DNA from: an uncultured Planctomycetia bacterium
GTDB taxonomy: Bacteria > Planctomycetota > Phycisphaerae > FEN-1346 > JAACEH01
DNA: 64,000 bases
Assembly (NCBI GenBank): GCA_903929765.1
Contig: CAIYVX010000082.1
Span: forward strand, 16,974-80,973
Direction: 5' to 3'
Made by a program: the position numbers and the translations under genes
Shown here: positions 7,436-58,053 of the stretch, piece by piece
Numbering within the stretch: position 1 is the stretch's first letter
Layout: every line of letters starts with the position of its first letter
The notes under the pieces: generated by a model
Told to the model about the DNA's origin: nothing
The model's database searches: none
What the model saw: only the letters and a program-made list of their open reading frames with translations

Positions 7436-7530
7436 TTGTCCTTACCCATAAAAAGACCGACGGCGAGGTCGTCGCATTCCTGCGGCCGACCTCGCCGTGG
7501 TCGACCGTGGCCTGGGGCCACGGACTCGTG

Positions 7531-8004: not shown

Positions 8005-8061
8005 CCGTTATCCTCTTTACCCCTTGCGGCGGCCATAAGGCCCGAGCCGCAAAAAATGTCC

Positions 8062-8433: not shown

Positions 8434-8538
8434 CGAAACCGCCTCTCCTGTTTTCAGTCCTTCTTCAACTTCCGGTTATCCCAGCGCCGCCCAAAGGGCC
8501 GACGCGAGTCCCATAGTATAGCACATCTTTTCGGGATT

Positions 8539-12843
<4,305 letters not shown>

Positions 12844-43607: not shown

Positions 43608-43631
43608 CAGAACCAACCTTTCAAACCTGTG

Positions 43632-43667
43632 CTGGGTGGCATGGCCGCTTGCGGCCATGCGCATAAC
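43632..43667. repeat. Palindromic element family D (variant)
   Basis: CTGGGTGGCATGGCCGCTTGCGGCCATGCGCATAAC carries the GGGTGGCATGGC...GCCATG hairpin shared with 46233-46271 and 58073-58112. Confidence 0.55.
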
Positions 43668-43673
43668 CCCGCC

Positions 43674-44861
43674 TCACGCCCTCAAAAAATATTCCATCAA
43701 CTCATAACCCACCGGAATCCGGAACCCGCTCGCCGCCGCATGTTTCTCCGTGTACGGCCCCGGCCGCGACGGACTCATCCCCGTCCCGATAATTCCCACC
43801 GGCACCGCATCGTGCGTGTGCGTCCGCAAGCTGATCGGCGTCAGGTGATCCGGCAGAACCATCAGCCGCCACTTCTCCAGCGTTTCCATGTAGCCCAGGA
43901 GCGGCGCCAGAATGTGCCGGTCGATCTGCTGAATCGCCTGAATCTTGTGCTGCGCCGAGCCCTCGTGCCCCGCCTCGTCCGTCGCCTCCACGTGCACGCA
44001 AACGATGTCGCAATCCTCCAGGGCCTTGATCGCCGCCTCGCCTTTGCCCTTGTAATTGGTATCCAGATAGCCCGTCGCCCCCTCGACCTCGATCACCCGC
44101 CAGCCGATGCCCTTGGCCAGCCCGCGCACCAAATCCACCGCCGTGATCGCCTCCCCTTGCAGCTTGTGCAGTTCCCGGAACGGCGTCAGCTTCGGCCGCG
44201 TCCCCTGGCCCCACAGCCAGATCTGCGTCGCCGGCCGCTCGCCCAGATCGCGCCGCACTCGATTTATTTCATGCTCCCCCAAGAGCGCCCGGCTCCCTTC
44301 CATCAGCCGCACCAACTCCGCCGCCCCCGGACCGCGCGGCAAATGCGTCGCCACCTCCTGATCCAGAATGTCGTGCGGCGGAGTCGTCTGAAGCTCGTCC
44401 TTCCCGTGTCCGCGATGCACCAGCAAATGCCGGTACCCGACCCCGTTGTGAAATTCCCACCGGTCGGATCCCAACGCGATGGCGAGTTCCTTAATTATCG
44501 CCGCCCCTTCCTCCGTCGAAATCCCGCCCGCCGTGTTATCCAGCATTTTCCCGTCGATCACCGTCACCAGATTACACCGAAACACCACGTCGTCGTCGCC
44601 AAGCTCGATGTCGCGGGCCAACGCCTCCAGCGGCGCCCGGCCCGTGTAATATTTGTGCGGATCGTAGCCCAGGAGGCTCAGGATCGCCACGTCGCTGCAC
44701 GCCGGCAAATCCTTCGGCGTGTTGCACGTCGTCCCGAACAGACCTTCCATCGACACCCGGTCAAAAGCAGGACACTCCGCCATCTCCAGCGGCGTCCGCC
44801 CCTTCAGCGACGCCTGCGGCAGGTCGCCCGCTCCGTCCGGAATGACAATCGCAAATTTCAT
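43674..44861 (-). CDS. Cofactor-independent phosphoglycerate-mutase-family protein (ApgM-like; possible non-orthologous homoserine kinase)
   Basis: MKFAIVIPDGAGD...the metalloenzyme phosphopentomutase/iPGM-like fold. It is wedged between lysC and hom. A predicted alternative ThrB of this family occupies this genomic position in other bacteria. Confidence 0.8.
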   Translation of the reverse strand: MKFAIVIPDGAGDLPQASLKGRTPLEMAECPAFDRVSMEGLFGTTCNTPKDLPACSDVAILSLLGYDPHKYYTGRAPLEALARDIELGDDDVVFRCNLVTVIDGKMLDNTAGGISTEEGAAIIKELAIALGSDRWEFHNGVGYRHLLVHRGHGKDELQTTPPHDILDQEVATHLPRGPGAAELVRLMEGSRALLGEHEINRVRRDLGERPATQIWLWGQGTRPKLTPFRELHKLQGEAITAVDLVRGLAKGIGWRVIEVEGATGYLDTNYKGKGEAAIKALEDCDIVCVHVEATDEAGHEGSAQHKIQAIQQIDRHILAPLLGYMETLEKWRLMVLPDHLTPISLRTHTHDAVPVGIIGTGMSPSRPGPYTEKHAAASGFRIPVGYELMEYFLRA

Positions 44862-44866
44862 CCCGC

Positions 44867-46174
44867 TCATCGGCTCCGCTCCTCGTCCAGAACTCGTATG
44901 CACACCGGCCGATTATGCACCACGTCCAGCCCGGCAAATTCCTTCAGCGCCACCCGCATGTCCCGTTCCACCGCCAGGTGCGTCATAATCATGAGCGGCA
45001 CGCTCGTCGCCTCCACCGGCTCGTGCTGAAGCACGCTGGCGATGGAAATGTGGTGCGCGCCCAGCACCCCCGTGATCCGCGACAGCACGCCCGGCTGATC
45101 CACCACGTCGAACCGCAGATAATACCGCGACGGCACGTCGTCAATCGACTGCACCGTCCCCTTTCCCGCGATGCTGAAAATGTCCCGCGCCGCAAACGTG
45201 ATCTCCGCCCGGCCCAGGGCCACGTCCACCAGGTCCGCCACCACCGCCGAAGCCGTCGGCCGCTGCCCCGCCCCTGCCCCATAATATAAGGTGTCGCCCG
45301 TCTCGTCGCCGCGCACCATCACCGCGTTGAACGGCCCGTCCACGTGGGCCAGCGGATTGCTGCGCGGCACAAAGGCCGGATGCACCCGCAGGCTCACCCC
45401 GCCGTCCGCCCCGCGCCGCCCGATGGCCAGCAGCTTGATTGTGTAATTCAACTCGGCGGCATAACGCACGTCCGCCGCCTCGATCTTCTGAATCCCTTCG
45501 CAGTGCACGTCCTCGAACCGCGCCGGCACGTCGAACGCCAGCCGCGCCAACACCGTCAGCTTGTGGGCGCTGTCCCCGCCCGACACGTCCAGCGTCGGAT
45601 CCGCCTCCGCATAGCCCTTGGCCTGCGCCTCCGCCAGGGCCTTCTTATAGCTCGTCCCCTGCTTCGTCATGCTCGTCAAAATGTAATTCGACGTCCCGTT
45701 CAGTATCCCCGTCAGCCCGGTGATCCGGTTGGCCACCAGCCCGTCCCGCACCGCCAGAATGAGCGGCAACCCGCCGGCCACCGCCGCCTCAAAACAAATC
45801 GCCTTGCCCAACTCCCGCGCCAACTTCACGAGCGGCTCTCCCCGCTCGGCCAGCAACGCCTTGTTCGCCGTGACCACGTCTTTGCCCGCCCGCAGACAGC
45901 GCTCGACCACGTCGTAAGCCGTCGTCGTCCCGCCGACCAACTCGCACACCACCGTCACTTCCGGGTCGGCCAGCACGCGATCCAGATCGTTGGTCAACAG
46001 TTCCGCCGGAACCTTCACCCCGCGATCCCGCGCCAGCTCTGTGTCGCAAACATATTTCAACTTTAGCCGCACCCCGGCCCGCGCCGCCACGGTCTCGCCG
46101 GACTCCAACAGAATCCGCGCCACCCCGCTGCCCACGGTCCCGAACCCGACTATCGCCACAGTTACCGTCTTCAT
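44867..46174 (-). CDS. hom: Homoserine dehydrogenase
   Basis: MKTVTVAIVGFGTVGSGVARIL, the NAD-binding and catalytic domains, and a C-terminal ACT domain are present. Confidence 0.93.
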   Translation of the reverse strand: MKTVTVAIVGFGTVGSGVARILLESGETVAARAGVRLKLKYVCDTELARDRGVKVPAELLTNDLDRVLADPEVTVVCELVGGTTTAYDVVERCLRAGKDVVTANKALLAERGEPLVKLARELGKAICFEAAVAGGLPLILAVRDGLVANRITGLTGILNGTSNYILTSMTKQGTSYKKALAEAQAKGYAEADPTLDVSGGDSAHKLTVLARLAFDVPARFEDVHCEGIQKIEAADVRYAAELNYTIKLLAIGRRGADGGVSLRVHPAFVPRSNPLAHVDGPFNAVMVRGDETGDTLYYGAGAGQRPTASAVVADLVDVALGRAEITFAARDIFSIAGKGTVQSIDDVPSRYYLRFDVVDQPGVLSRITGVLGAHHISIASVLQHEPVEATSVPLMIMTHLAVERDMRVALKEFAGLDVVHNRPVCIRVLDEERSR

Positions 46175-46232
46175 GGTTTCCCCGGACGCGACTCGCACGT
46201 CGTCTCTTTACCCCTCTCCCCATAAGGGAGGA

Positions 46233-46271
46233 CGGGTGGCATGGCGGCGTCGTTTGCCGCCATGTTTCGCC
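46233..46271. repeat. Palindromic element family D, copy 1
   Basis: GACGGGTGGCATGGCGGCGTCGTTTGCCGCCATGTTTCGCC has the stem CATGGCGGC/GCCGCCATG. Confidence 0.65.
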
Positions 46272-46295
46272 AGTGCCCGTTCTTCGGGTGCCGCC

Positions 46296-46352
46296 GTTTC
46301 TTCACCCCTCTCCCTCGGGAGAGGGTGGCCCGAAGGGCCGGGTGAGGGGTTA
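46296..46352 (+). repeat. Palindromic element family B, copy 2
   Basis: GTTTCTTCACCCCTCTCCCTCGGGAGAGGGTGGCCCGAAGGGCCGGGTGAGGGGTTAG is near-identical to the copy inside valS (56208-56272). Confidence 0.7.
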
Positions 46353-46489
46353 GCTCACCACCTCAAAAACTTCACCAGAACGCCATCATACGCGAGGACA
46401 TGCCCTGCCCGCGCCCTAAGCCCGACCAAAGTATTCCGAATCGCCCCATTTTTCAAGTAAAAACGCTGTGCGTACAGCCTTTGTTGTTC

Positions 46490-46514
46490 GTAGGGACAGG
46501 GCTCTGCCCTGTCC
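46490..46514 (+). repeat. GTAG-type hairpin element family G, copy 1
   Basis: GTAGGGACAGGGCTCTGCCCTGTCC is identical to 63476-63500 and begins with the GTAG tetranucleotide typical of classical REPs. Confidence 0.65.
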
Positions 46515-46543
46515 AGCCGTTTCTTTTGCCGTTGCCGCTTCAC

Positions 46544-46592
46544 CGTGGCACGGGCTTCCCGCCCGTGAGTCGCAGGGGCATCTTGCCCCTGT
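46544..46592 (+). repeat. REP family A, copy 3
   Basis: CGTGGCACGGGCTTCCCGCCCGTGAGTCGCAGGGGCATCTTGCCCCTGTG is present, and its flanking TGCCGTTGCCGCTTCAC... context also matches copy 8. Confidence 0.7.
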
Positions 46593-46670
46593 GCCGTTGT
46601 TCTTGCCGTTGCCGCGTGTAGGGGCAACCCGTGGGTCGCCCGTTGCTGTTGTTTGTTGCTTCTCTCTAGG

Positions 46671-46985
46671 CCCCCGCGCCATCGCCCTCCACTCCGCTCT
46701 CCCCCAGCCGCGAAGCGGCGAAAGTTTTTAGCCGGGCGGCGTCAGCCCCCGGTCCCCGCCGCAAACACATTCTTCTTCTTTTTCTTCTTATTTCTCTTCT
46801 CAGCCGCAGCGCGGCGTCTGATAATAACCACGCGGCGCAAGCCCGTGGTTCCCAACGCGCCGACCCGGCTTTTTTCTTCTTCTTTTTCTTTTCCCAGCCC
46901 CCTCCCCCCGCGCCATCCCCCTCCCCTCCGCTCACCCCCAGCCGCGAAGCGGCGAAAGTTATTAGCCGGGTGGCATAAGCCAGCC
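46671..46985 (+). repeat. Two ~77-nt direct repeats separated by polypyrimidine tracts
   Basis: 46671-46747 is CCCCCGCGCCATCGCCCTCCACTCCGCTCTCCCCCAGCCGCGAAGCGGCGAAAGTTTTTAGCCGGGCGGC. 46903-46985 is the same sequence with 8 substitutions. Between them lie TTCTTCTTCTTTTTCTT tracts and a GC hairpin, with no credible CDS. Confidence 0.6.
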
Positions 46986-47167
46986 ACACCCTGTCCGCGC
47001 AGACATTCACCATCCGCTTTGGCTTGGTTATTAACACATGACAATGTTCATTTTGAGGAGGGCAGGTCGAAGTAAAGGCGGAGCCAGGGTTCAAGGTCTT
47101 CGAGCGCCACGGCCTTGCCTGTAGAGATGAGGAAGGACTTCATGTTCTCGGTGAATCCGTCGCCGTC

Positions 47168-47920
47168 TTAGGAAGCGAGATTCATCTCAATGCCGAATAA
47201 GTTTTTGCCCCGCTCAAACCCGACAGCAAAATCATGCAACTCCCCGACTTCTTCGTATCGGTGAAATCGAAATCGTTCTCGGTACTGTCTGAATGGCGAT
47301 TGACTCATGTAACGCTCGAAAAGATGCTCTTCCTCATCACCCTGCCCAATGATATAGAGACCTGTTTGGAATCGTTTGGGGATTTTTAGCAACCGCAGGA
47401 GCCCGCTTTTCACTTTGGTGCTATGCTCGACTTCGAATGCGTAACGAGGGTAAAGGCCCTCATCGTCCTCGGACAGCCACATTACATCAACGTCTCGCAT
47501 CCTTGAAAGTGGCAAGCCGCTTATGCTGGCCGAGTCATTACGAACTGTGGCAAAAGAATGAATTGGGATTGCACCCATCGAGCGAATGGTCCGGTCAGTC
47601 GCATTGGTGTAGGTTTCATAGCCACATAATCGTCCGATATGAAGAAGCAACCCTTGCTGTTCCCCGTGTGGATCATTTGCGGCTCCATCGACCACAGGAG
47701 GAAGCTGGCCAAACTCAACGAGGCGATATGCCGCCCTTCCCGACGACGAACGAAATGGCTCAAATATCCGGTATTGCCGCACGACGCGACGAACAGTTGC
47801 CTCCCATGTGGCGGTCCGCGGTCGTTGCGGGCTATTCGCCAAGCACTCCGTAAGAGTTTCAAGCGTCGCCTCACCCCCGAGCTGGCGCAAAGCGTCGGCG
47901 ACAATATCTTTCCAAGTCAT
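47168..47920 (-). CDS. HARE-HTH/Mrr_N-type winged-helix protein with a nuclease-like C-terminal domain (candidate Mrr-like type IV restriction protein)
   Basis: The N-terminus MTWKDIVADALRQLGGEATLETLTECLANSPQRPRTATWEATVRRVV matches the Mrr_N/HARE-HTH pattern as recalled. The C-terminus has D...EVEHSTK-type acidic/lysine residues, a possible PD-(D/E)xK variant. The gene lies in a ~50% GC islet. Confidence 0.5.
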   Translation of the reverse strand: MTWKDIVADALRQLGGEATLETLTECLANSPQRPRTATWEATVRRVVRQYRIFEPFRSSSGRAAYRLVEFGQLPPVVDGAANDPHGEQQGLLLHIGRLCGYETYTNATDRTIRSMGAIPIHSFATVRNDSASISGLPLSRMRDVDVMWLSEDDEGLYPRYAFEVEHSTKVKSGLLRLLKIPKRFQTGLYIIGQGDEEEHLFERYMSQSPFRQYRERFRFHRYEEVGELHDFAVGFERGKNLFGIEMNLAS

Positions 47921-47922
47921 AT

Positions 47923-48180
47923 TTATGCCCTGCTAGTTTTGGCGCCCGGTTTCAATTTGGTCACAAACCTTTTACCGGCACGGCCTCTTGAAACTGGCTT
48001 TGCGGAAACAACATTGGTCACCAACGTTGGCCCGACAACGGACATACGGGGGCCTTTGCAACAAAAATCAATTATCGACTCTGGTGGGAGGCACTCTACC
48101 CAATCACGAGCATCAGCCTCATCGTCGCACTCAACAACCATCTTAAAAGGAACAGAAAGGTTCACAAGGAATTCCGGCAT
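47923..48180 (-). CDS. Small hypothetical ORF upstream of the HARE-HTH gene
   Basis: The ORF is 85 aa from the internal ATG. It has low-GC codon usage like its neighbour and no recognisable family. It may be non-coding. Confidence 0.2.
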   Translation of the reverse strand: MPEFLVNLSVPFKMVVECDDEADARDWVECLPPESIIDFCCKGPRMSVVGPTLVTNVVSAKPVSRGRAGKRFVTKLKPGAKTSRA

Positions 48181-48395
48181 TGTATCCTCCTGGAGGGACG
48201 AACTATTATGCACCTCAAAGCTTGCTTGATGCAATAGGCAAATGCCAAACCCGCAAGATTTTTCTCCACCCTCAGACAAATGGGCTGGGAAAGAGGTGAT
48301 AATTGAGTGGCCTGAGCCACAACTCTTTCCACCACACCATTGTTTTTTCTCCTTCATTCGGCGACAATATCCCCATTCTCTCGCGGAGGTCTCTT

Positions 48396-48764
48396 ATGTC
48401 CTACGAACTTCTTGTCACCATGGATTTCGGCGCCGCCCATTCCCTGCGGCAATATAAGGGCAAGTGCGAGCGGCTGCACGGCCACAACTGGCACATCGAC
48501 GTTTGCCTCGCCGCCGACGTCCTCAACCCCGACGGCATGGTCATGGACTTCGTCGAGGCCAAGGCCCTCATCCGCGAAATCCTCTCAAGTTACGATCACT
48601 ATCATCTGAACGAGGTGCCGCCCTTCGACCAGATCAACCCCACCAGCGAGAACCTGGCCCGTGTTCTGTCCGAGCGGCTCCAGCCCGGCCTGCCGCCGGG
48701 CGTCCGCGTCGTCCGCGTCACCGCCTGGGAAAGCGATAATTGCGGCGCGACGTTTATTGTGTAA
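48396..48764 (+). CDS. queD: 6-carboxytetrahydropterin / 6-pyruvoyl-tetrahydropterin synthase family (QueD/PTPS)
   Basis: MSYELLVTMDFGAAHSLRQYKGKCERLHGHNWHIDV has the Cys-x5-His-Gly-His zinc/catalytic motif of the PTPS fold. The product is 122 aa. Confidence 0.85.
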   Translation: MSYELLVTMDFGAAHSLRQYKGKCERLHGHNWHIDVCLAADVLNPDGMVMDFVEAKALIREILSSYDHYHLNEVPPFDQINPTSENLARVLSERLQPGLPPGVRVVRVTAWESDNCGATFIV

Positions 48765-48785
48765 GATGAACGACAAAAGAAGCAA

Positions 48786-48839
48786 CACCCTCACCCTACC
48801 CTCTCCCCTCAAGGGAGAGGGGTGAAGAAGAAAAAGAAG
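48786..48839 (-). repeat. Palindromic element family B, copy 3
   Basis: CACCCTCACCCTACCCTCTCCCCTCAAGGGAGAGGGGTGAAGAAGAAAAAGAAG is the reverse complement of copy 1. It supplies the GTG and lysine codons of the next gene's annotated start. Confidence 0.7.
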
Positions 48840-50150
48840 AGGCAGGCCGTGACCGAACGAAAAATCCGCATCCAACTCGCCCTCGATTTCGCCGACCTGA
48901 GCCGCGCCCTGGCCGTGGCCCGCGCCGCCGTGCCCGAGGGCATCGACATCGTCGAAGCCGGCACGCCGCTCATCAAGAGCGAGGGTCTTAACGCCGTCCG
49001 CGAGTTGCGCCGCCTCTTTCCCGACCGGCCGATCCTGGCCGACCTCAAGACCGCCGACGCGGGCCGCATCGAAATGGAATGCGCCGCCAAGGCCGGGGCC
49101 ACGATGGCCATCTGCCTCGGCGCCGTCAGCGAATCGACCGTCCAGGAATCCATCGAAGCCGGCCGCAATTACGGCATCGAGGTCGGCGTCGACATGCTCG
49201 GCGTCGCCGATTACGTCGCCCTGGCCAAAAAATGCGAAGCCTGGGGCGCCGCCTTCCTCAACGTCCACCTCCCCATCGACGACCAGATGCGCGGCCTCCA
49301 ATCATTCGACCGCCTCCGCCAGATCGCCGAAGCCGTCTCGATTCCCGTCGCCGCCGCCGGGGGACTTAATTCCGAAAACGTCGTCGACGCCATCGCCGCC
49401 GGCGCTGCCATCGTCATCATCGGCGGCGCGATCACCAAGGCCGCCGACGTGGCCCAGGCCACGAGGGACATTCGCCGCGCGGTGGACACGCGGGCCAAAG
49501 TCGCCACCGAACTTTTCCGCCGCGCCGGCGAGACCGACATCCGCGAAGTCCTCGGCCGCGTCTCGGCCGCCAATTTAAGCGACGGGGCACACCGCCTGCC
49601 CTCGCTCGACGGACTCCGCCCGCTCTGGCCGGGCATCCGCTTTTGCGGCCCGGCCCTGACCGTCCGCACCGTCCCCGGCGATTGGTCGAAGCCCGTCCTG
49701 GCCATCGACCAGGCTGAGCCTGGCGACGTTCTCGTCATCGACGCCGGCGGCCGCCCGCCCGCCGTCTGGGGCGAACTGGCCACACAGAGCGCCATCGTCA
49801 ACAAGCTCTCCGGCGCCGTCATCGACGGGGCCGTCCGCGACACCATGGACATCCGCCGCCTCGAATTCCCGATCTTCTCCCGCTGCGTCTCGGCCAACGC
49901 CGGCGAACCCAAGGGCCTCGGCGAAATCGGCCAGCCGATTTTCCTTTCCGGCCAGCGAATCATGACCGGCGACTGGATTCTCGCCGACGACGACGGCGTC
50001 GTGGTTCTGCCCAAGGCCCGGGCGGTGGAAATGGCCAACCGCGCCCAGGACGTTCTGGAAAAAGAAAACCGCCTTCGCGACGAAATCACCAGCGGCCGCA
50101 GCTCGCTCGGCAAAGTCGCCGAACTTTTGCGCTGGGAGAAAAAATCTTAA
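48822..50150 (+). CDS. Fusion protein: 3-hexulose-6-phosphate synthase (HPS/KGPDC-OMPDC fold) N-terminal domain plus RraA/MenG-like (HMG/CHA-aldolase family) C-terminal domain
   Basis: Residues ~15-215 (IQLALDF...DIVEAGTPLIKSEGLNAVRELRRLFPDRPILADLKTADAG...IIGGAITKAAD) align with B. subtilis HxlA as recalled. Residues ~250-420 (GPALTVRTVPGDW...GDVLVIDAGG...WGELATQSAIVNKLSGAVIDGAVRD) match the RraA-like fold. The true start may be downstream of the repeat-derived GTG. Confidence 0.8.
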   Translation: MKKKKKRQAVTERKIRIQLALDFADLSRALAVARAAVPEGIDIVEAGTPLIKSEGLNAVRELRRLFPDRPILADLKTADAGRIEMECAAKAGATMAICLGAVSESTVQESIEAGRNYGIEVGVDMLGVADYVALAKKCEAWGAAFLNVHLPIDDQMRGLQSFDRLRQIAEAVSIPVAAAGGLNSENVVDAIAAGAAIVIIGGAITKAADVAQATRDIRRAVDTRAKVATELFRRAGETDIREVLGRVSAANLSDGAHRLPSLDGLRPLWPGIRFCGPALTVRTVPGDWSKPVLAIDQAEPGDVLVIDAGGRPPAVWGELATQSAIVNKLSGAVIDGAVRDTMDIRRLEFPIFSRCVSANAGEPKGLGEIGQPIFLSGQRIMTGDWILADDDGVVVLPKARAVEMANRAQDVLEKENRLRDEITSGRSSLGKVAELLRWEKKS

Positions 50151-50251
50151 CCCCGCATTTCCCCGTTGTCCCTTACAATCTTTTGTTCGCGCCCGACAAG
50201 TTTGCTCGGTAGAATACGTCCGATTCCGATGTTGAAAAACAGGAGAGAAAT

Positions 50252-51319
50252 ATGGTGCCGACGATCCGATCCGTTGCAGCGTGGTTGTTATTGGCTGTGT
50301 TCCTGGCGACTGCGGGGTGTACTGCGCCATCCACGATGCCAACGGCTCCGAAGGGCGCCGTGACGGGCGCCGCGTCGGCAGCCTCCAGCGCCCAGCCCCC
50401 CTGCCCGGCTACGGCGACCGACCTCAAGGGCGCCTATGCCATGAACGGTGAACTGTACGTCAACACCTTCGGCACGCCGGAGGGCCGGCCGATCACGACC
50501 GGACACCATGACATGAAGCCCTCCTGGTCCAAGACGGGCGACAGTCTCGTCTTCTTCCGCGTCATCGCCTTCGCCAAGCAGGTTCCCGACTGGAAGACCG
50601 CGATCTGCACGATCAAGACCGACGGCTCGGGCTTCCGCCAGCTCACCGACGGAACCCACACCGACTTCAATCCCACCTGGACGCGAGACGGCCAGAACCT
50701 GATCGTCTTGAATCGACAGGACAAACAGGTCGTCGGAACCCACAGTTACGTTGTGATGTTCACCCGCTCCGACGCCGGCCCCGGCGATGAGTACGCCGTG
50801 AGCGACACGCGGACCCCCACCGAGTCCCTCAGTTGCCTCAAGGATGGCCGCGAACTGGTCTGGGCCTTCAGGGGCCTGGGGATCAAACGTGGCTACTTTC
50901 TCATGACGCCCGGCCGAGACAACAGTGCGAAATACGAACCCCTTCAGTGCGAGTTGGCGAACGCGGGCCTGCTCGATCGTGTCAGCGTCTCGCCCGGCGA
51001 GACGAAGATCTGCTTCGAGTTCCAGAGAGGCTCCGGCGCCTACCGCTACCCCGGCCGGATTCTCTACATCGCCGACTTCGACGCCAGGGCGAAAACCATC
51101 ACCAACCCGAAGATCATTGCCAACGAGGCCGGCGACCCGGACACCGTCTATCTCTACCCCCGCTGGACCAGGGACGAGAGTGCGGTCGTTTACCACTGCA
51201 ATAAGACCGGCAAGAATCAGTTGTACCTGTACCGGCTTAAGGACGGATCGACGATCCGCGTTTCGACCAACGCCGGCGCGGATTATATGTTCCCCCACGG
51301 CGAGGCGACGCCGAAATAG
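50252..51319 (+). CDS. Lipoprotein with WD40-like (PD40/TolB-type) beta-propeller repeats
   Basis: It has a lipobox (LATAGC) and recurring PSWSKTGDSLVF / NPTWTRDGQNLIV / YPRWTRDESAVVY blades. Confidence 0.7.
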   Translation: MVPTIRSVAAWLLLAVFLATAGCTAPSTMPTAPKGAVTGAASAASSAQPPCPATATDLKGAYAMNGELYVNTFGTPEGRPITTGHHDMKPSWSKTGDSLVFFRVIAFAKQVPDWKTAICTIKTDGSGFRQLTDGTHTDFNPTWTRDGQNLIVLNRQDKQVVGTHSYVVMFTRSDAGPGDEYAVSDTRTPTESLSCLKDGRELVWAFRGLGIKRGYFLMTPGRDNSAKYEPLQCELANAGLLDRVSVSPGETKICFEFQRGSGAYRYPGRILYIADFDARAKTITNPKIIANEAGDPDTVYLYPRWTRDESAVVYHCNKTGKNQLYLYRLKDGSTIRVSTNAGADYMFPHGEATPK

Positions 51320-51366
51320 GCTTCCTCCGCGGCAGCTTTGCCGTGGGCCGACGAAAGGAACCGAGA

Positions 51367-52443
51367 ATGGCGAAAGAAACTGACCAACTCTCGCGGCGGG
51401 ACATGCTCAAGCTGGCCGCGCAAGCCGCCCTCGTGGCCACAGTTTCGGGCTGCCTCTCGCGGACGGTTACGCCGCCGGTTGTTAAGGTCGCGCCGGTTGA
51501 CCAGCCCGCGCCGGCGGACCAGGCCGTGGCGACCGGGACCATCCCCGCGCGGGCCTTCGGCCGGACCGGCCTGGAACTGCCGATTCTCGGCTTTGGCGGC
51601 GCCGCCCTCCCCGCCACCTGGGGCAATCCGCTCTCGCTCGACGACCGCGTGAAACTGGTTCGCTACGCCTATGATCGCGGCGTGCGCTACTTCGACACCG
51701 CCGGCAACTATTTTGAGAGCGAGTCGATTCTCGGCCAGGGACTGCTGGGCCTCCGTCAGCACGTCCAGTTGGCCACGAAGGTCCAGACGACCATCCCGGC
51801 CGAGGTGCCGAAGGCCGTGGAGAAGTCTCTCCAGCAACTCCAAACGGACTACCTCGACTTCATCCAGATTCACGGCACGCCGGGCCTGGAGCAGATGAGC
51901 GTCAAGCAGGCCATGGCGATCCACGGTGAACTGGTCAAGCTGCGCGACCAGGGCGTCGTCCGACATATCGGGTTCAGCGCCCACTCCTACTTCGACAAGG
52001 CCCTGGCCCTAATCGAGACCGGCGGCTTCGAACAGTGCATGCTGGCGTACGGCTATCTTCCCAAAGGCTACAATCAGGTCTTTGCCGCCAGAATGCTGGA
52101 GCTGCGTAACGCCTGCCTGGCCAAAGCCCATGAGCGGGGCATGGCCATCGTCGCCATGAAGGTCGTTGGCGCCGGGTGTCTCGGCGTACGGGCCGGATCC
52201 TTGGTCCCCGACTTCGACAAAAAACGCCTCACCCAACTGCCCGCCGCCGCGATCCGCTATGTGCTGCAAGACCAGCGGGTTAACCTCCTCGCCATCGGCA
52301 TGCGTCTCAAGCAGGAGATTGACGCGAACATCGGTACGCTTGCGGGGGATACTGCGTTCACCGCCGCAGACCGCGCGCTTCTTGCGGAGTTCTCCGTGCG
52401 CGTGCTGGATAGCGAACCGCTCAAGAAGCTGCGGGTGGACTGA
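51367..52443 (+). CDS. Tat-exported aldo/keto reductase
   Basis: It has a twin-arginine signal (SRRDMLKLAAQAAL), the AKR motifs (RYFDTAGNY, HIGFSAHS) and a 359-aa length. Confidence 0.85.
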   Translation: MAKETDQLSRRDMLKLAAQAALVATVSGCLSRTVTPPVVKVAPVDQPAPADQAVATGTIPARAFGRTGLELPILGFGGAALPATWGNPLSLDDRVKLVRYAYDRGVRYFDTAGNYFESESILGQGLLGLRQHVQLATKVQTTIPAEVPKAVEKSLQQLQTDYLDFIQIHGTPGLEQMSVKQAMAIHGELVKLRDQGVVRHIGFSAHSYFDKALALIETGGFEQCMLAYGYLPKGYNQVFAARMLELRNACLAKAHERGMAIVAMKVVGAGCLGVRAGSLVPDFDKKRLTQLPAAAIRYVLQDQRVNLLAIGMRLKQEIDANIGTLAGDTAFTAADRALLAEFSVRVLDSEPLKKLRVD

Positions 52444-52603
52444 GTTCACCGCCGGGGCCGGGCGTCATTGGTTCATCGCCGCAACACTTTTTATCCCCAA
52501 GGTCTTGATTTCCTGACACGAAGTCCTCAAACTGTTGTCCGAAGAGCCCGGCTTCGTGGCCGGACCAGTCCAAGTGGAAAATATCGGTTAAAAGGAGATT
52601 CTC

Positions 52604-53404
52604 ATGCTCGTAGTTGCCGAACGCCTCAACTGCACCCGTAAACGCATCCGCCAGGCCGTCCTGGACAAGAACGCGGAGTTCGTCCGCGATGAGGCCACCC
52701 GCCAGGCCGCGGCCGGCGCCGCCTATATCGACGTCAACTCCGCCACCGGCGTCGACTCGGAAGTCGACGACATGAAATGGATGATCGAGCAGGTCCGCTC
52801 TGTCACCGCCCTGCCCATCAGCGTCGACACGGCCAACCCCACGGCCATGCGCGTCGGCCTGGAGCTGCACGGCCCCGGCCAGCCCATGCTCAACTCCATC
52901 ACCGGCGAAAGTGAACGCCTGAAGATCATGCTGCCTCTGGCCGCGGCGTTCCACACCAAGGTCGTCGCCCTGGCCATGGACGACACCGGCATGCCCGAAA
53001 CCATCGACGCCCGCTTCGTGGCCATCGAAAAAATTCTTGCCGCCGCCGGCCCTCTCGGCATCAAACGAGAGGACATCTACATCGACCCGCTCATCCGCCC
53101 CATCTCGACCAACCCCACCCACGCCCTGGACTGCCTGGAAACGGTGCGGCGCATCAAGGCCGAGTTCGGCCCGCTCCAGACCACCGGCGGCCTCTCCAAC
53201 GTCAGCTACGGCCTGCCCAAGCGCAACCTCATCAACCGCGTCTTCATCCCCTACATGATCCTCTCCGGCATCGACGCCGCCATCATCGACCCGCTGGAAC
53301 CCGGCATCATGGCCGCCATCTACGCCGCCGAAGCCATCCTCAACCGCGACGAATACTGCATGAACTACATCACCGCCGACCGCGAAGGACGACTGGGACT
53401 ATAG
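52604..53404 (+). CDS. Pterin-binding methyltransferase (MtrH / AcsE-like methyl-tetrahydrofolate or -methanopterin:corrinoid methyltransferase)
   Basis: MLVVAERLNCTRKRIRQAV...IDVN...IYIDPLIRPISTN...GGLSNVSYGLPKRNLINRVF aligns along its whole length with AcsE/MtrH as recalled. Confidence 0.75.
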   Translation: MLVVAERLNCTRKRIRQAVLDKNAEFVRDEATRQAAAGAAYIDVNSATGVDSEVDDMKWMIEQVRSVTALPISVDTANPTAMRVGLELHGPGQPMLNSITGESERLKIMLPLAAAFHTKVVALAMDDTGMPETIDARFVAIEKILAAAGPLGIKREDIYIDPLIRPISTNPTHALDCLETVRRIKAEFGPLQTTGGLSNVSYGLPKRNLINRVFIPYMILSGIDAAIIDPLEPGIMAAIYAAEAILNRDEYCMNYITADREGRLGL

Positions 53405-53445
53405 GCTGCGGTTGCCCTTTCTTTTTCACCCGCACCCCCTTGCCG

Positions 53446-53482
53446 GTGGGTGAAATGGTCTGGCGCAGACAGGCCATGAAAG
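53446..53482. repeat. Hairpin element family E, copy 1
   Basis: GTGGGTGAAATGGTCTGGCGCAGACAGGCCATGAAAG has a ~9-bp stem (CATGGTCYG/CRGGCCATG); a near-identical copy lies at 61696-61731. Confidence 0.6.
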
Positions 53483-53586
53483 AATAACTGTTCGCAAATA
53501 TTGTAGGGTGCGTGCTTGCACGCACCAAAATTAAAAGCTGTTTTCCGCTTGCTGTTGCCGTCGTTTCTTTTATTGAATTTTCTTCT

Positions 53587-53622
53587 TTTGAAGCCCCCAG
53601 CACTACTGGGGGATGCTGTTTC
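53587..53622. repeat. Hairpin element family F, copy 1
   Basis: TTTGAAGCCCCCAGCACTACTGGGGGATGCTGTTTC contains the CCCCCAG/CTGGGGG hairpin. It is paired with family E again at 61565-61731. Confidence 0.6.
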
Positions 53623-53647
53623 TTCTTTTTCTTAGAAATCTTTCGCC

Positions 53648-54133
53648 ATGACCAAAACTTCTTTCACCATCCGCCCCGCCACTCCCGCCGACGCCGACGC
53701 CGTCGTCGCCATGTGGCAGATCATGGTGGACCAGCACCAGGCTTACGATCGCCTGCGCTGGCGCATGAAGCCCAACGCCCCCGCCCTTTGGCGCAAGTTC
53801 TTTCTGGAAGTCCTGGCCAAAAAAGATTCCTTCGCCCTGGTCGCCGTCAACGCCACTGGTCAACCCATTGGCTATCTCGTCGCCAACATCGCCGCTCCGC
53901 CGCCGATCGTGGCCATCCGCTCCCGCGGCGATATCGGCGATCTCTTTGTCCGAAAAGAATATCGCCGCCACGGTCTCGGCCGCCGACTAATGAACCACGC
54001 CGTCAAAATCATGAAGAGCCGCGGCGCCGAATATATCAGCCTCTACGTTGCCGCCTCGAACCGCAGCGCCGTCCGTTTCTACAAAAACCTCGGCCTGAAA
54101 CCGCTCGTGCTGCAGATGTGCAATAAGTTATAA
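53648..54133 (+). CDS. GNAT-family N-acetyltransferase
   Basis: The 161-aa product carries the acetyl-CoA-binding motif RRHGLGRRLM and the GNAT beta-strand pattern. Confidence 0.85.
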   Translation: MTKTSFTIRPATPADADAVVAMWQIMVDQHQAYDRLRWRMKPNAPALWRKFFLEVLAKKDSFALVAVNATGQPIGYLVANIAAPPPIVAIRSRGDIGDLFVRKEYRRHGLGRRLMNHAVKIMKSRGAEYISLYVAASNRSAVRFYKNLGLKPLVLQMCNKL

Positions 54134-54139
54134 TGAAAC

Positions 54140-54186
54140 GTGCCACGGCGGGTCTTGTCCCGCCGTGCGAATGCGGGCCGACGCTC
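54140..54186. repeat. Hairpin element family C, copy 1 (immediately upstream of valS)
   Basis: GTGCCACGGCGGGTCTTGTCCCGCCGTGCGAATGCGGGCCGACGC has the stem CACGGCGGG/CCCGCCGTG. Its partner copy is 66 nt downstream of the valS stop. Confidence 0.65.
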
Positions 54187-54207
54187 GCTAAAAGGATAAT
54201 TGTCCCG

Positions 54208-57200
54208 ATGACCCAACCCGAAACCAACTCCACCAACCCCACCGACCTTCCCACCCAATACGACCCCAAGCTCTTCGAAAAGGAAGTTTACGCCTTCTGG
54301 GAATCTCATAACTATTTCCACGCCGACCCCGCGCGCGGCGGAAAACCCTACGCCATAGCCATCCCGCCCCCCAACGTCACTGCCGCCCTCCACCTCGGCC
54401 ACGCCCTCAACAACACCCTTCAGGACATCCTCGTCCGCTGGCGCCGCCAGCAGGGCTACAACACCCTCTGGATGCCCGGCACCGACCACGCCGGCATCGC
54501 CACCCAGGCCGTCATCGAAAAACGTCTCCTCGCCAACGAAGGCCTGCGCCGCAAAGACCTCGACCCCGACCCCGCCGTCGCCCGCACCAAGTTCGTCGCC
54601 CGCGTTCAGGCCTGGAAAGACGAGTACGAAGCCCGCATCCTCGGCCAGCTCAAAGCCATGGGCTGCTCCTGCGACTGGGACCGCACCCGCTTCACCATGG
54701 ACGAAACCTGCGCCGCCGCCGTCCGCGAAGCCTTTTTCCGCCTCTTCAAAGACGGCCTCATCTATCGCGGCAAACGCCTCGTCAACTGGGACCCCGCCAC
54801 CCAGACCGTCCTCGCCGACGACGAAGTCGAACACGAAACCGTCCAGGGAAATTTCTATTACCTCCGCTACCCGCTGGCTGAAGCCGTTGCTTTACCCAGT
54901 GACACGGGCATCTTGCCCGTGAGTCCCACGGGCGTCCCGCCCGTGGCCGCCGTTTCTTCTTCACCCAGTGGCACGGGCGTCCCGCCCGTGAGTGCCACGG
55001 GCATCTTGCCCGTGGAAGACTTGCCTGTAATCAAGCGTCAGGGTGCCAACCTGCCTCACTGGACTCAATCCGGCGCAACCTATGCCATCACGTTCCGGTT
55101 GGCCGATTCTCTCCCCGCCCAAGTCATTGAATCATGGAAGCATCACCGGGAAGAAATCGAACAAAGAGCCAACTCCCAAGGCCGCAAGATGACCTGGCAG
55201 GAGCGTAAGGAACTCCACCAACTGTACGAATCCCGCATCGACAGCATGCTGAACACCGGTCTTGGGGCGTGTTATCTCAACAATCCGGAAGTAGCCGAAA
55301 TCGTCCAGGACGCACTGAAACATTTCCACGGCGAGCGATACGAACTGATCGCCTGGTCACTCATGCCCAACCACATCCATGCCGTTCTCCGTCCTCTGGG
55401 AGAACACCATCTCGCGGACATCATCCACTCCTGGAAGTCCTTCACGGCTAAGCAAGCCAACAAAATTCTTGGACGAGAAGGACAGTTCTGGATGGAGGAA
55501 TACTACGACCACCTGATTCGCGACGAAGAGGATTTTGGCCATGCGGTAATGTACGCGATCAGCCATCCGGAGCGCGCCGGCCTGGCCGACTGGCCGTGGG
55601 TCGGACTGCAAAAAACGGCACAGGGGCAAGATGCCCCTGCGACTCACGGGCAAGATGCCCGTGCCACTGTTATAACACACATCACCGTCGCCACCACCCG
55701 ACCCGAAACCATGCTCGGCGACACCGCCGTCGCCATGAACCCCCGCGACCCCCGCGCCGCCGCTCTCGTCGGCCAGATGGTTCGCCTCCCCATCGTCGGC
55801 CGCCTCATCCCCATCATCGCCGACGAACACGTCGTCCTCCCCAACCCCGAAGGCGACGAAAAAGCCCGCTTCTCCACCGGCTTCCTCAAAGTCACACCCG
55901 CCCACGACCCCAACGACTGGGACATCGGCCAGCGCCACAAACTCCCGGCCATCAACGTCATGGCCCCCGACGGCTCAATCTCCGACAAGCACGGCTGGAC
56001 CGACTGGGACGCCGTCAAAAATCCTGATGTCGAAAAATTCATTGGCCTCGACCGCTTCATAGCCCGAAAGAAGATCGTCGACTGGTTCGGCGAAAACAAT
56101 CTTCTCGAAGAAGTCCGCCCCTACGCCCACGAAGTCGGCCACTCCTACCGCAGCCATGTCCCCATCGAACCCTACCTCTCCGACCAGTGGTTCATCGCCG
56201 TGAAAAAGCCGTTTCTTCTTCACCCCTCTCCCTCGGGAGAGGGTGGCCCTTCAGGGCCGGGTGAGGGGTTGAGGCCCTTGCCCGTTCCGACCGCGCCCGA
56301 ACTGATCCCCGGCACCGACGTGCCAGTTAATTCTTTAGCCGGCTTGGCCATCAAGCCGCTCCTCGACGGCAAACTCAAATTCGTCCCCGAGCGCTACGCC
56401 CGCAACTACCAGAACTGGCTCGAAAACCTTCGCGACTGGCCCATCTCCCGCCAACTCTGGTGGGGACACCGAATTCCAGTGTGGCAAGGAATCACTGAAT
56501 TTGGATCGAAGGTGTTTGAGGGCAAGGACACAGCAAAATCTCCATTCGGAATAGCCGGCGTAGAAGGAATACACATACAGCACAGAGATGAGGCTGGAAA
56601 ACTGGGACTGTATGCCTCGGTACCGCCCGGCCATCCAGACAAGGAAAAGAAACTGGAGGAGGCTGGCCTAACCCGCGACCCCGACGTCCTCGACACCTGG
56701 TTCTCTTCCGGCCTCTGGCCCATCTCAACCCTCGGTTGGCCGGAACAAACCGACGCGCTGAAATTCTATTACCCCACCTCCGTCCTCTGCACCGCCCGCG
56801 AAATCATCACCCTCTGGGTCAGCCGCATGGTCATGTTCGGCGAATATTTCCAGCACGACCTCCCCTTCCGCACCGTCTACATCCACGCCATGATTCAGGA
56901 CGGCGAAGGCCGCAAAATGTCCAAGAGCCTCGGCAACGGCATCGACCCCCTCGACATCATCGACTCTCACGGGGCCGACGCCATGCGCTTCACCATCGCC
57001 GCCATGACCACCGAAACTCAGGACGTCCGCATGCCGGTCGAAACCCTCACCCTCCGCGACGGCCGCACCGCCAACTCCAGCCCCAAGTTCGACCTCGGCC
57101 GCAACTTCTGCAACAAGCTCTGGAACGCCTCCCGCTTCGCCTTCATGAACCTCGCCGAACTTTCCCCCGAGCCGTTCGACCGCGCAAAAATGCTCCTCGA

Positions 57201-58053
57201 AGACCGCTGGATTCTCTCCCGCCTCACCACCACCGTCGAAGCCGCCACACAGGCCCTCGAAAAGTTCCAGTTCCACGACGCCACCGACGTGATCTACTCT
57301 TTCTTCTGGAACGATTTCTGCGACTGGTACCTCGAAATCACCAAGCCGCGCATGCGCGACGCCGCCACCAGAGCCGTCCCCCAACGCATCCTCGCCTACG
57401 CCCTCGACCGTCTCCTGCGGCTCCTCCACCCCTTCGTCCCGCACATTACCGAGCACCTCTGGACCCACTTCGCCCGCCTCGTCCCCGACCGCTCGCTCGA
57501 CTCTGCGGCCCCCGCCCCACCCGCCGAAGCCTGCATCATCGCCCTTTGGCCCGAGCCGGTCGCCGCTTTTTACGCGCCCCAGGCCGAAACCGATTTCGCC
57601 CTCGTCCAGGCCGTCATCCGCGCCATCCGCAACATCCGTTCGCGCATGAACATCGCCCCGCGCGTCCCGCTCCGCGCCGTCATCCGCTCGAGCGCCGCCG
57701 CCACCGCCCGCCTCTCCGCCGCCGCCGACACCATCCGCCACCTCGCCGCCCTCGAATCTCTTGAGGCCGACCCTGCCGCCGAAAAGCCCAAAGCCTCCGC
57801 CGCCGAAATCGTCGAAGGCCTGGAAGTCTTCGTCCCCCTCGCCGGCGTCATCGACCTCGCCACCGAGCGCGACCGCCTCGCCAAACTCTCGGCCGAGAAG
57901 GATAAGGCCCTCGACAGCGTCCGCAAAAAACTCTCGAACGAAAACTTCGTCGCCCGCGCCAAGCCCGAAATCGTCGCCAGCGAACGCGACCGCGCCGCCA
58001 AGCTCGAATCCGAACTCGCCGCCCTCACAGCCAACATGAAAGATTTGGAATAG
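54208..58053 (+). CDS. valS: Valyl-tRNA synthetase carrying two in-frame repeat-derived insertions (one is a complete REP-RAYT-REP unit)
   Basis: The HIGH (HLGH), KMSKS, TTRPETMLGD (CP1), WCISRQ-like (WPISRQLWWGHRIP) and anticodon-binding regions are present, as is the C-terminal coiled coil. The ORF is uninterrupted for 1282 codons from the chosen ATG, versus about 880-1000 aa typical. Confidence 0.93.
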   Translation: MTQPETNSTNPTDLPTQYDPKLFEKEVYAFWESHNYFHADPARGGKPYAIAIPPPNVTAALHLGHALNNTLQDILVRWRRQQGYNTLWMPGTDHAGIATQAVIEKRLLANEGLRRKDLDPDPAVARTKFVARVQAWKDEYEARILGQLKAMGCSCDWDRTRFTMDETCAAAVREAFFRLFKDGLIYRGKRLVNWDPATQTVLADDEVEHETVQGNFYYLRYPLAEAVALPSDTGILPVSPTGVPPVAAVSSSPSGTGVPPVSATGILPVEDLPVIKRQGANLPHWTQSGATYAITFRLADSLPAQVIESWKHHREEIEQRANSQGRKMTWQERKELHQLYESRIDSMLNTGLGACYLNNPEVAEIVQDALKHFHGERYELIAWSLMPNHIHAVLRPLGEHHLADIIHSWKSFTAKQANKILGREGQFWMEEYYDHLIRDEEDFGHAVMYAISHPERAGLADWPWVGLQKTAQGQDAPATHGQDARATVITHITVATTRPETMLGDTAVAMNPRDPRAAALVGQMVRLPIVGRLIPIIADEHVVLPNPEGDEKARFSTGFLKVTPAHDPNDWDIGQRHKLPAINVMAPDGSISDKHGWTDWDAVKNPDVEKFIGLDRFIARKKIVDWFGENNLLEEVRPYAHEVGHSYRSHVPIEPYLSDQWFIAVKKPFLLHPSPSGEGGPSGPGEGLRPLPVPTAPELIPGTDVPVNSLAGLAIKPLLDGKLKFVPERYARNYQNWLENLRDWPISRQLWWGHRIPVWQGITEFGSKVFEGKDTAKSPFGIAGVEGIHIQHRDEAGKLGLYASVPPGHPDKEKKLEEAGLTRDPDVLDTWFSSGLWPISTLGWPEQTDALKFYYPTSVLCTAREIITLWVSRMVMFGEYFQHDLPFRTVYIHAMIQDGEGRKMSKSLGNGIDPLDIIDSHGADAMRFTIAAMTTETQDVRMPVETLTLRDGRTANSSPKFDLGRNFCNKLWNASRFAFMNLAELSPEPFDRAKMLLEDRWILSRLTTTVEAATQALEKFQFHDATDVIYSFFWNDFCDWYLEITKPRMRDAATRAVPQRILAYALDRLLRLLHPFVPHITEHLWTHFARLVPDRSLDSAAPAPPAEACIIALWPEPVAAFYAPQAETDFALVQAVIRAIRNIRSRMNIAPRVPLRAVIRSSAAATARLSAAADTIRHLAALESLEADPAAEKPKASAAEIVEGLEVFVPLAGVIDLATERDRLAKLSAEKDKALDSVRKKLSNENFVARAKPEIVASERDRAAKLESELAALTANMKDLE
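54897..55669 (+). mobile_element. REP-RAYT-REP composite embedded in frame in valS
   Basis: Two tandem family-A REP doublets (54897-54946, 54966-55015) are followed by a RAYT-like HUH domain (~55012-55605: LPHWTQSGATYAITFRL...AWSLMPNHIHAVL...FWMEEYYDHLIRDEEDFGHAVMYAISHPERAGLADWPWVG) and one inverted family-A REP (55616-55669). The region has no stop codon and no ATG; it is contiguous with the flanking ValRS sequence. Confidence 0.8.
56208..56272 (+). repeat. Palindromic element family B, copy 4, in frame inside valS
   Basis: CCGTTTCTTCTTCACCCCTCTCCCTCGGGAGAGGGTGGCCCTTCAGGGCCGGGTGAGGGGTTGAGG is translated as PFLLHPSPSGEGGPSGPGEGLR. It sits within a ~40-aa insertion relative to the E. coli ValRS region DQWFV...FVPKQY. 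Confidence 0.75.

Follow-up and report, generated by a model that had tools for sequence, protein, structure and literature searches.

A 64,000-nucleotide stretch of DNA from an uncultured Planctomycetia bacterium (contig CAIYVX010000082.1; this whole stretch is called the window below) encodes a protein that joins an HPS domain (HPS stands for 3-hexulose-6-phosphate synthase) to an RraA-like domain in one polypeptide. The protein is a somewhat divergent bacterial member of a known, catalogued fusion family, and not a new kind of system. Taken together, we think it likely that this family member has HPS function, that its second lyase domain is catalytically competent, and that it works in a folate rather than a methanopterin context. 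From its conserved residues we infer a bifunctional carbon-carbon lyase of the ribulose-monophosphate (RuMP) shunt, with the role of the RraA-like half being the more conjectural part.

The gene lies in a single open frame at 48822-50150 on the forward strand, which codes for 442 amino acids (aa) without a stop or frameshift, and its GC content at third codon positions (GC3) of 0.85 gives the codon-position GC pattern typical of a true gene. Pfam matches were found for both halves, each covering nearly the entire model: in the numbering of the 442-aa call, OMPdecase/HUMPS (PF00215) matches aa 16-217 at 106 bits and RraA-like (PF03737) matches aa 250-395 at 145 bits against a gathering cut-off of 24.5. 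AlphaFold2, given 23 homologues as input, produced a model with a mean pLDDT of 90.3. When the model was searched with Foldseek, the N-terminal half matched the solved HPS structures 3f4w and 3ajx with TM scores of 0.91-0.92, and the C-terminal half matched the 4-hydroxy-4-methyl-2-oxoglutarate/4-carboxy-4-hydroxy-2-oxoadipate (HMG/CHA) aldolase and its relatives with TM scores of 0.81-0.88 (3noj, 0.81; 3k4i, 0.86; 1j3l, about 0.87). A preliminary description of this DNA, made from the letters alone, had proposed a one-gene fusion of two complete domains and had named an internal stop or frameshift as the observation that would undo it; the open frame, the domain matches and the folds all bear the proposal out.

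The start of the gene is probably the GTG at 48849, giving a product of 433 aa, since homologues are 428-437 aa long and their N-termini correspond to that codon. The GTG at 48822 sits within a copy of a dispersed REP-like repeat (48813-48829), with which the opening 9 codons of the 442-aa frame overlap, and this accounts for the odd N-terminus, MKKKKKRQ, of the longer call. The exact fusion protein was found again on metagenome contigs, with a gene order identical to the window's. The gene and its two domains are as follows.

48849-50150, forward strand: HPS::RraA-like fusion gene, frame open from 48822, likely start GTG 48849, 433 aa, 520.9 bits to NF005442.
48867-49472, forward strand: HPS (beta/alpha)8 domain, placed by PF00215 (aa 16-217), by alignment to 3ajx and 9lj9, and by the TM scores of 0.91-0.92.
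49569-50006, forward strand: RraA/HMG-CHA-aldolase-like domain, placed by PF03737 (aa 250-395) and by an ungapped alignment to 3noj over R123/D124.

The preliminary description had also called the fusion unusual, was aware of no characterisation of it, and had named a database record of a common, already characterised fusion as grounds for giving that up. The fusion is common, and it is half characterised. NCBIfam holds a model for it, NF005442 (PRK07028), to which aa 15-441 align over model positions 4-429 of 430. When candidates sharing words with the fusion protein were scored, 7979 of 8000 reached E ≤ 1e-10, and among the matches listed all 120 bear both PF00215 and PF03737 at about 430 aa. 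The database names of close relatives vary, and include bifunctional hexulose-6-phosphate synthase/ribonuclease regulator, HPS, and OMP decarboxylase. A profile-free scan of 1.84 billion cluster representatives returned full-length fusions down to 38-51% identity, and in a pattern scan of one genome per species, 590 of the 600 stretches that matched were confirmed, so that the fusion is encoded by no fewer than 590 species genomes. From this last scan 80 loci were retained; its counts are lower bounds, and the closest relatives were taken from the protein index instead. Represented among the 80 loci are Desulfobacterota, Planctomycetota (Phycisphaerae, Planctomycetia and the anammox Brocadiales), Actinomycetota, Omnitrophota, Elusimicrobia, Spirochaetales, Poribacteria and Armatimonadota. 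Archaeal members occur in Archaeoglobi-like and Methanomicrobiales genomes.

One family member has been assayed. Kono et al. [quoted passage not shown] The Methanomicrobiales fusions align with the window protein over its full length at about 47% identity, which places the two in the same family as far as sequence can tell. Searches of the literature under several names for the fusion returned only this paper, and none characterising the RraA-like half. The view of the preliminary description is upheld for that half, but not for the HPS half or for the rarity of the fusion.

Residue conservation was counted in an alignment of 83 fusion sequences from the sampled loci, covering about ten phyla. 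In the HPS half, the metal-ligand Glu (E33), the D-x-K-x-x-D motif (D62, K64, D67), the catalytic His (H137) and the phosphate loop are kept in 83 of 83 sequences. Three positions that separate HPS from 3-keto-L-gulonate-6-phosphate decarboxylase, KGPDC (Glu112, Arg139 and Thr169 in KGPDC) are Asp, Ile and Ala in the window fusion, which is the HPS state; Mycobacterium gastri HPS bears the same three residues in the alignment, and the 83 fusions have Asp in all, Ile in 80 with Val in 3, and Ala in 81 with Ser in 2. The meaning given to these positions reportedly comes from the KGPDC E112D/R139V/T169A work, whose PDB entries are among the structure matches. The N-terminal barrel, of the OMPDC suprafamily, would be a Mg2+-dependent HPS that interconverts ribulose 5-phosphate plus formaldehyde and D-arabino-3-hexulose 6-phosphate. 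This reversible aldol reaction is almost certainly what the HPS half performs, because its residues are intact, activity was measured for a homologue, and PHI, a SIS-domain protein, is encoded next to the fusion in a quarter of the loci. The presence of PHI beside 23 of the 83 fusions supports a genuine role in the RuMP shunt.

The C-terminal half retains the full residue set of class II metal-dependent pyruvate aldolases and oxaloacetate decarboxylases. When it was aligned to the P. putida aldolase 3noj, its Arg, Asp, pocket Lys and Glu fell on R123, D124, K147 and E199, and no gap opened between the GxL(A)T loop and the RD pair. The equivalent of Glu199, the second metal ligand, lies in the C-terminal helices at about 50070-50090, just past the Pfam domain range. 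The Arg and the Asp are present in 83 of 83 fusions, and the acidic and Lys positions are nearly invariant. Mazurkewich et al. 2016 (PMC5065237) described Arg-123 as essential to stabilise the pyruvate enolate, and Asp-124 and Glu-199 as acidic metal-binding residues, and they considered most RraA homologues with these motifs to be probable class II pyruvate aldolases.

Family score tests indicate what the domain is not. The fusion falls far under the cut-offs for LigK/ProA, the 4-carboxy-4-hydroxy-2-oxoadipate aldolase (107.3 against 304.5 for TIGR02798 and 115.5 against 179 for NF006731), and far under those for RraA, the RNase E regulator (59.4 against 136 for NF006875 and 35.2 against 241 for TIGR02998). 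Because all of these equivalog cut-offs are missed widely, the C-terminal domain is, on its scores, neither LigK nor RraA proper.

The RraA-like half could instead be non-catalytic, serving as an oligomerisation scaffold (a trimer-forming domain on a dimer-forming barrel) or as a regulator in the manner of E. coli RraA for RNase E. The words "ribonuclease regulator" in the NCBI family name lean that way, as does the sole assay of the family, which gave HPS activity alone and at the low level quoted above. We regard a non-catalytic half as improbable: the catalytic Arg and metal-ligand Asp are kept in all 83 sequences, with the acidic and Lys positions nearly fixed, across about ten phyla; the RraA equivalog score is less than half its cut-off, and the best domain matches are aldolase-type models and structures. 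A catalytic role therefore appears much more likely than a passive one, and the bifunctional C-C lyase of the preliminary description holds up insofar as both halves look competent, with both active sites kept in all 83 sequences.

A divergent sub-branch of the fusion (P0173, P0189, P0192 and P0213, at about 27% identity) was also observed, in which the RraA Arg is gone (RD to TD or SD) together with the HPS His region and the third Asp. Its members may be pseudo-enzymes or may have an altered function. That the Arg and several HPS residues were lost together speaks against a merely structural second half, and hints that the two sites are functionally tied.

If both sites work, they may work on the same one-carbon unit. 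It is possible, and we put it forward only tentatively, that the C-terminal domain makes a 2-oxoacid enolate which takes up formaldehyde from the HPS domain, or that it releases formaldehyde in the reverse direction. This is suggested because the catalytic set is invariant, because the two sites degenerate together in one branch, and because the other domains fused to HPS are PHI or formaldehyde consumers. Such a hand-over of formaldehyde would parallel the Fae and aldehyde:ferredoxin-oxidoreductase (AFOR) domains that are fused to HPS elsewhere.

The genes on either side of the fusion carry the folate part of the finding. Two of them, listed here, were correctly placed by the preliminary description, which put a PTPS/QueD gene just upstream and, about 2.5 kb downstream, a pterin-binding methyltransferase lacking a corrinoid partner.

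48396-48764, forward strand: PTPS-family gene, QueD-type, 122 aa, with a hybrid PTPS-I/III motif; PF01242 at 133 bits, TIGR03367 (QueD) at 102 against 89.25.
52604-53404, forward strand: methyltransferase of 266 aa that stands alone and has a pterin-binding TIM barrel; it is MtgA/AcsE-like, of the methyl-tetrahydrofolate:corrinoid type; PF00809 at 94 bits, NF005719 at 308.6 against a cut-off of 259.

The PTPS motif in the window reads KGK-C-E-R-L-H-G-H, that is CExxHGH, and the same CExxHGH is found in all 14 of the PTPS genes that adjoin the fusion. In the scheme for COG0720 (PMC5041015), CxxxHGH is the sign of QueD, ExxHGH that of the folate enzyme PTPS-III, and CExxHGH that of hybrids able to serve both pathways. 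The product is predicted to be a 6-carboxytetrahydropterin synthase, with an additional 6-hydroxymethyl-dihydropterin (folate) activity being possible on the motif.

The methyltransferase has its best solved relatives in 4o0q (E 1e-52), AcsE 2yci (E 8e-51) and 1f6y, the range being E 1e-52 to 1e-42. The first of these was deposited under the name 'dihydropteroate synthase DHPS'; we take it to be the Desulfitobacterium methylcorrinoid:tetrahydrofolate methyltransferase MtgA. The alignment retains the VDT, NSI, IDPL and GLSNVS segments, which are pterin-contact motifs, and the roles of these residues are presumably those given in the literature on the methyltransferase MeTr. A DHPS-like model related to tetrahydromethanopterin (H4MPT), TIGR00284, gives the protein only 17.8 bits. 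No corrinoid (B12-binding) protein was found by Pfam in the GC3-supported open reading frames (ORFs) of the window, and no corrinoid family within 6-10 kb in five related loci (L004, L087, L090, L091 and L092). In Omnitrophota, by contrast, acsD, RACo and cooC stand beside the methyltransferase copy.

The preliminary description had read this cluster as part of the methanopterin-linked formaldehyde handling of Planctomycetes. There were reasons to think so: HPS handles formaldehyde, archaeal Fae-HPS fusions tie HPS to methanopterin, and H4MPT genes occur in some Planctomycetes. At this locus the reading is largely refuted, and we find it hardly credible. Neither fae, mtd, mch or fhc nor H4MPT biosynthesis genes came up when the window's GC3-supported ORFs were scanned with Pfam, with no search targeted at fae, and none is present in the Pfam-annotated neighbourhoods of nine homologues; two proteins considered as a source for a fae query (P0155 and P0181) each proved to be an HPS duplicated in tandem. 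The motif of the PTPS belongs to the queuosine/folate class, the methyltransferase is nearest to the tetrahydrofolate enzymes MtgA and AcsE and barely registers with TIGR00284, and the neighbours elsewhere, GcvT-SHMT and acsD/acsE, are genes of the tetrahydrofolate pathway. The one-carbon flavour of the locus is real but, judged from its genes, folate-type and not methanopterin-type.

The five related loci just named are Phycisphaerae-type, with fusions 65-75% identical to the window's, and they share the order PTPS – fusion – Pterin_bind – mcsA – mcsB with spacers of about 10-30 nt in most. The methyltransferase directly 3' of the fusion is 71-74% identical to the window's in L004, L087, L090 and L091. 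Because these relatives hold a tight PTPS – fusion – Pterin_bind order, the window is to be read as a derived state in which two exported-protein genes, described below, were inserted between fusion and methyltransferase; these PD40 and aldo/keto reductase genes are insertions, lineage-specific in the case of PD40, and probably lie outside the system. The fusion gene would then belong, with PTPS(I/III) and the tetrahydrofolate methyltransferase, to an operon that the lineage conserves and that has been loosened here. The preliminary description had grouped the pterin genes with the fusion, and the tight three-gene operon of the relatives upholds that grouping, though not its methanopterin link. 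Since the operon is conserved in the lineage, the one-carbon link is to the folate pool and not to methanopterin. In one of the relatives, the Phycisphaerae metagenome-assembled genome with locus L004, an 884-aa GCV_T-SHMT fusion (6786-9440, forward strand) lies directly upstream of the operon. In the 65%-identity relative L092, a gene for a chorismate-binding enzyme of the anthranilate/para-aminobenzoate synthase component I type (3952-5463, reverse strand) was seen to diverge from the operon; it is possibly a further folate link.

The partners of the fusion at large were surveyed at 83 loci, in an unbiased clustering that took in every ORF lying no more than 5 kb away from it. Three mutually exclusive partners adjoin the fusion on the same strand: UPF0047/YjbQ at 24 loci, PHI at 23 and PTPS at 14. 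The gene for UPF0047/YjbQ, an uncharacterised protein, lies directly upstream of the fusion in Actinomycetota, Omnitrophota and Firestonebacteria, and never with PHI or PTPS there (L028, L033-L037, L042-L048, L051, L053-L056, L064, L067, L069, L072, L074, L076, L082 and L083). PHI is the partner in Desulfobacterota, some Planctomycetota and Spirochaetales, and PTPS in Phycisphaerae, Brocadia, Jettenia, Scalindua and others. In a rough neighbour-joining tree the partner type is mostly clade-wise, and each type occurs in more than one branch; PTPS adjacency is found in the separate branches of Phycisphaerae, Brocadiales, L038 and the distant L071. Further out, the surroundings come back to one-carbon metabolism several times: besides the GcvT-SHMT fusion of L004 and the Actinomycetota order given below, the order in Omnitrophota is RACo–cooC–acsD–acsE–UPF0047–fusion, and in Elusimicrobia hydroxyacid dehydrogenase–glycerate kinase–truB–fusion. 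Neither PHI nor UPF0047 was found in the 64-kb window. That PTPS or UPF0047 might be non-orthologous replacements of PHI was considered, because the three exclude one another beside the fusion, and set aside; Kuenenia has HPS and PHI at separate loci, and the partner type largely follows clades.

The Actinomycetota order, panG-like (DUF2520) – panC – UPF0047 – fusion at 16-19 loci, brings up another reaction for the RraA-like half, in which it would condense formaldehyde derived from HPS with 2-oxoisovalerate to give ketopantoate without folate, replacing PanB. PanB performs the same aldol-type chemistry. The panG/panC context is, however, limited to one phylum-level clade. Around the fusion in the window, and around it in the Planctomycetota, Desulfobacterota and Omnitrophota loci, there are no genes for pantothenate, and we hold the ketopantoate role to be very unlikely.

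A broader objection is that the neighbours form no functional unit at all. The fusion would then act alone in the RuMP shunt, the PTPS would be the cell's QueD/folate enzyme, the methyltransferase would belong to an unlinked corrinoid-dependent methyl-transfer system, and the order would be inherited synteny. We put this somewhat short of an even chance. The adjoining partner does vary by lineage, in the proportions given above, and the PTPS scores above the QueD equivalog cut-off. The Planctomycetota synteny block reaches to mcsA, mcsB and clpC, which are unrelated genes, so adjacency of PTPS and methyltransferase may be inherited gene order and not functional coupling; in the window the PD40 and aldo/keto reductase genes were inserted with the flanking genes kept, so tight linkage is dispensable. 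On the other hand, most loci have spacers of only 12-50 nt, PTPS has come to adjoin the fusion in several distinct branches of its tree, and a tetrahydrofolate methyltransferase adjoins the fusion in Omnitrophota too, in another arrangement.

Synteny and the dispensable linkage count against a folate-linked, bifunctional enzyme as a whole, and further points weigh on the same side. The one activity reported for the family is that of the HPS half. Two pocket residues of 3noj are replaced in the fusion, Asn71 by Trp and His75 by Val, within a family-specific PGDW(A/S)KP motif, and the substrate is therefore not that of LigK-type enzymes. The fusion misses the NF005442 equivalog cut-off (520.9 against 593 bits), being of a divergent branch, and narrowly misses the HPS model TIGR03128 (190.2 against 200 bits). 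The lack of PHI in the window also means that supply or removal of hexulose 6-phosphate in the host is not backed by the locus.

Data from another planctomycete give the shunt itself some in vivo support. When Kuenenia was traced with 13C-formate, the labelling was fitted best if the HPS/PHI reactions made about 23% of the fructose 6-phosphate, from formaldehyde whose source the study did not identify. The Kuenenia gene may be of the fused form; all sampled Brocadiales loci bear the fusion.

Going beyond the folate-linked, bifunctional lyase favoured here, a fuller picture can be drawn, although we hold it to be rather unlikely as a whole. The RraA-like domain would be a formaldehyde-dedicated class II aldolase that adds HPS-derived formaldehyde to a 2-oxoacid enolate (which with pyruvate would give 4-hydroxy-2-oxobutanoate), or does the reverse, and the fusion would by itself bridge sugar phosphates and the 2-oxoacid/folate one-carbon pool. 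The Phycisphaerae operon, with its corrinoid-less tetrahydrofolate-binding protein, would be a bacterial, folate-based counterpart of archaeal Fae–Hps, and UPF0047/YjbQ and PTPS would act in the same unrecognised route. A related link, from 4-hydroxy-2-oxobutanoate to homoserine through the upstream divergent operon of aspartate kinase, homoserine-kinase-like protein and homoserine dehydrogenase at 42375-46198, was dropped; that operon is not beside the fusion in any relative. No aromatic-catabolic context was found at the fusion.

What is at stake is a second, perfectly conserved active site without a known reaction, in a family spanning at least 590 species genomes of bacteria and archaea. 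If the site handles formaldehyde, it would explain one-carbon disposal or supply in organisms that run the RuMP shunt without methanopterin, including anammox bacteria, for which labelling already indicates flux through HPS/PHI. Nature would then also offer an aldolase that acts on formaldehyde and 2-oxoacids, a type of enzyme that is at present being engineered for synthetic methanol assimilation. In the main, the present finding corrects an over-reading, given that the fusion is common, catalogued and half assayed. Three observations appear to be new, as far as the literature could be searched: that Phycisphaerae conserve a PTPS(I/III)–fusion–tetrahydrofolate-methyltransferase operon, that anammox bacteria share with them a PTPS next to the fusion, and that PHI, UPF0047 and PTPS alternate as its partner. 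They make the second activity of a widespread enzyme somewhat more tractable, and do not make the window exceptional.

The remaining features close to the fusion, including the two inserted genes, are as follows.

50252-51319, forward strand: PD40/beta-propeller protein with a lipoprotein-type N-terminus (…LATAGC), PF07676; absent at the same position in L004, L087, L090, L091 and L092.
51343-52443, forward strand: aldo/keto reductase with a twin-arginine-like leader (SRRDMLK…VSGC), PF00248 at 105 bits; absent at this position in the relatives.
53648-54133: GNAT.
48813-48829, reverse strand: dispersed REP-like palindromic repeat TTCTTCACCCCTCTCCC…GGGAGAGGG, in the spacer between PTPS and fusion, overlapping GTG 48822; 4 copies in the window against 0.01 expected.

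When 46000-54300 was scanned for promoters and terminators, shuffled sequence yielded just as many, and the transcription unit is not definable from the scan. The GC3-supported ORFs of the window further include a ribosomal-protein/rpoBC block, sugar and glycogen genes, hemB, an operon of aspartate kinase, a homoserine-kinase-like gene and homoserine dehydrogenase, valS, a two-component system, purE and an IF-2B-family gene.

Repeats are plentiful in this part of the window. Copies of the TTCTTCACCCCTCTCCC…GGGAGAGGG repeat are at 42271, 46298, 48813 (reverse strand) and 56216, one of them within the valS ORF. That ORF (54133-58053, forward strand, 1306 aa) has an in-frame insert at about 54897-55670 with an IS200-like Y1 transposase (RAYT-type) domain, PF01797, which scores 26.6 bits where 23 is the cut-off. 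On both sides of the insert stand inverted copies of GGCACGGGCATCTTGCCCGTG, a hairpin repeat of REP-like type; this repeat has 13 copies in the window and, outside valS, lies at or just beyond gene ends. From its sequence the insert looks like a REP/RAYT element sitting in-frame inside an essential tRNA synthetase gene. A gap of 2 kb separates the PTPS operon from the gene for homoserine dehydrogenase, and in it there is a 77-nt direct repeat (46671-46747 and 46905-46981, 91% identical, 234 nt apart), along with A/T runs and REP hairpins (46200-47100) and a 250-aa ORF on the reverse strand (47168-47920) without a Pfam or NCBIfam match.

Compared with known systems, the window fusion is closest to HPS-MenG (Mhun0647) and NF005442, which it resembles in the order of its two domains, its length of about 430 aa and its full-length alignment to the model. 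It differs in belonging to a bacterial, Phycisphaerae-type branch that scores under the family cut-off, and in lying in a PTPS–fusion–tetrahydrofolate-methyltransferase operon, none having been described for the archaeal gene. Stand-alone HPS (M. gastri 3AJX and Salmonella 3F4W) and the Hps-Phi fusion 9LJ9 share its metal ligands, DxKxxD motif, catalytic His and specificity residues, whereas the window fusion has a C-terminal RraA-like domain in the place of PHI. With the HMG/CHA aldolase (LigK/ProA-type, 3NOJ) and the uncharacterised PSPTO_3204 (3K4I), the C-terminal domain has the equivalents of Arg123, Asp124, Lys147 and Glu199 in common, but no more than about 30% of its residues are identical, and other residues stand in the places of Asn71 and His75.

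Other joined forms of HPS were seen in the representative library: AFOR_N/AFOR_C domains with a C-terminal HPS barrel (P0160, P0193 and P0170), tandem HPS-HPS(-SIS) fusions (P0135 and P0155) and a STAS-HPS fusion (P0243). Time and again, it seems, HPS has been joined to an enzyme that either provides its sugar substrate or uses up formaldehyde. The Fae-Hps of methanogens (PRK13307) and the AFOR-HPS proteins both link HPS to a second domain that acts on formaldehyde, as the RraA-like partner may do in the window fusion. The logic would be alike, with the one-carbon unit released or consumed by HPS handed directly to the partner, while the partner domains of Fae-Hps and AFOR-HPS are unrelated in fold to the RraA-like domain.

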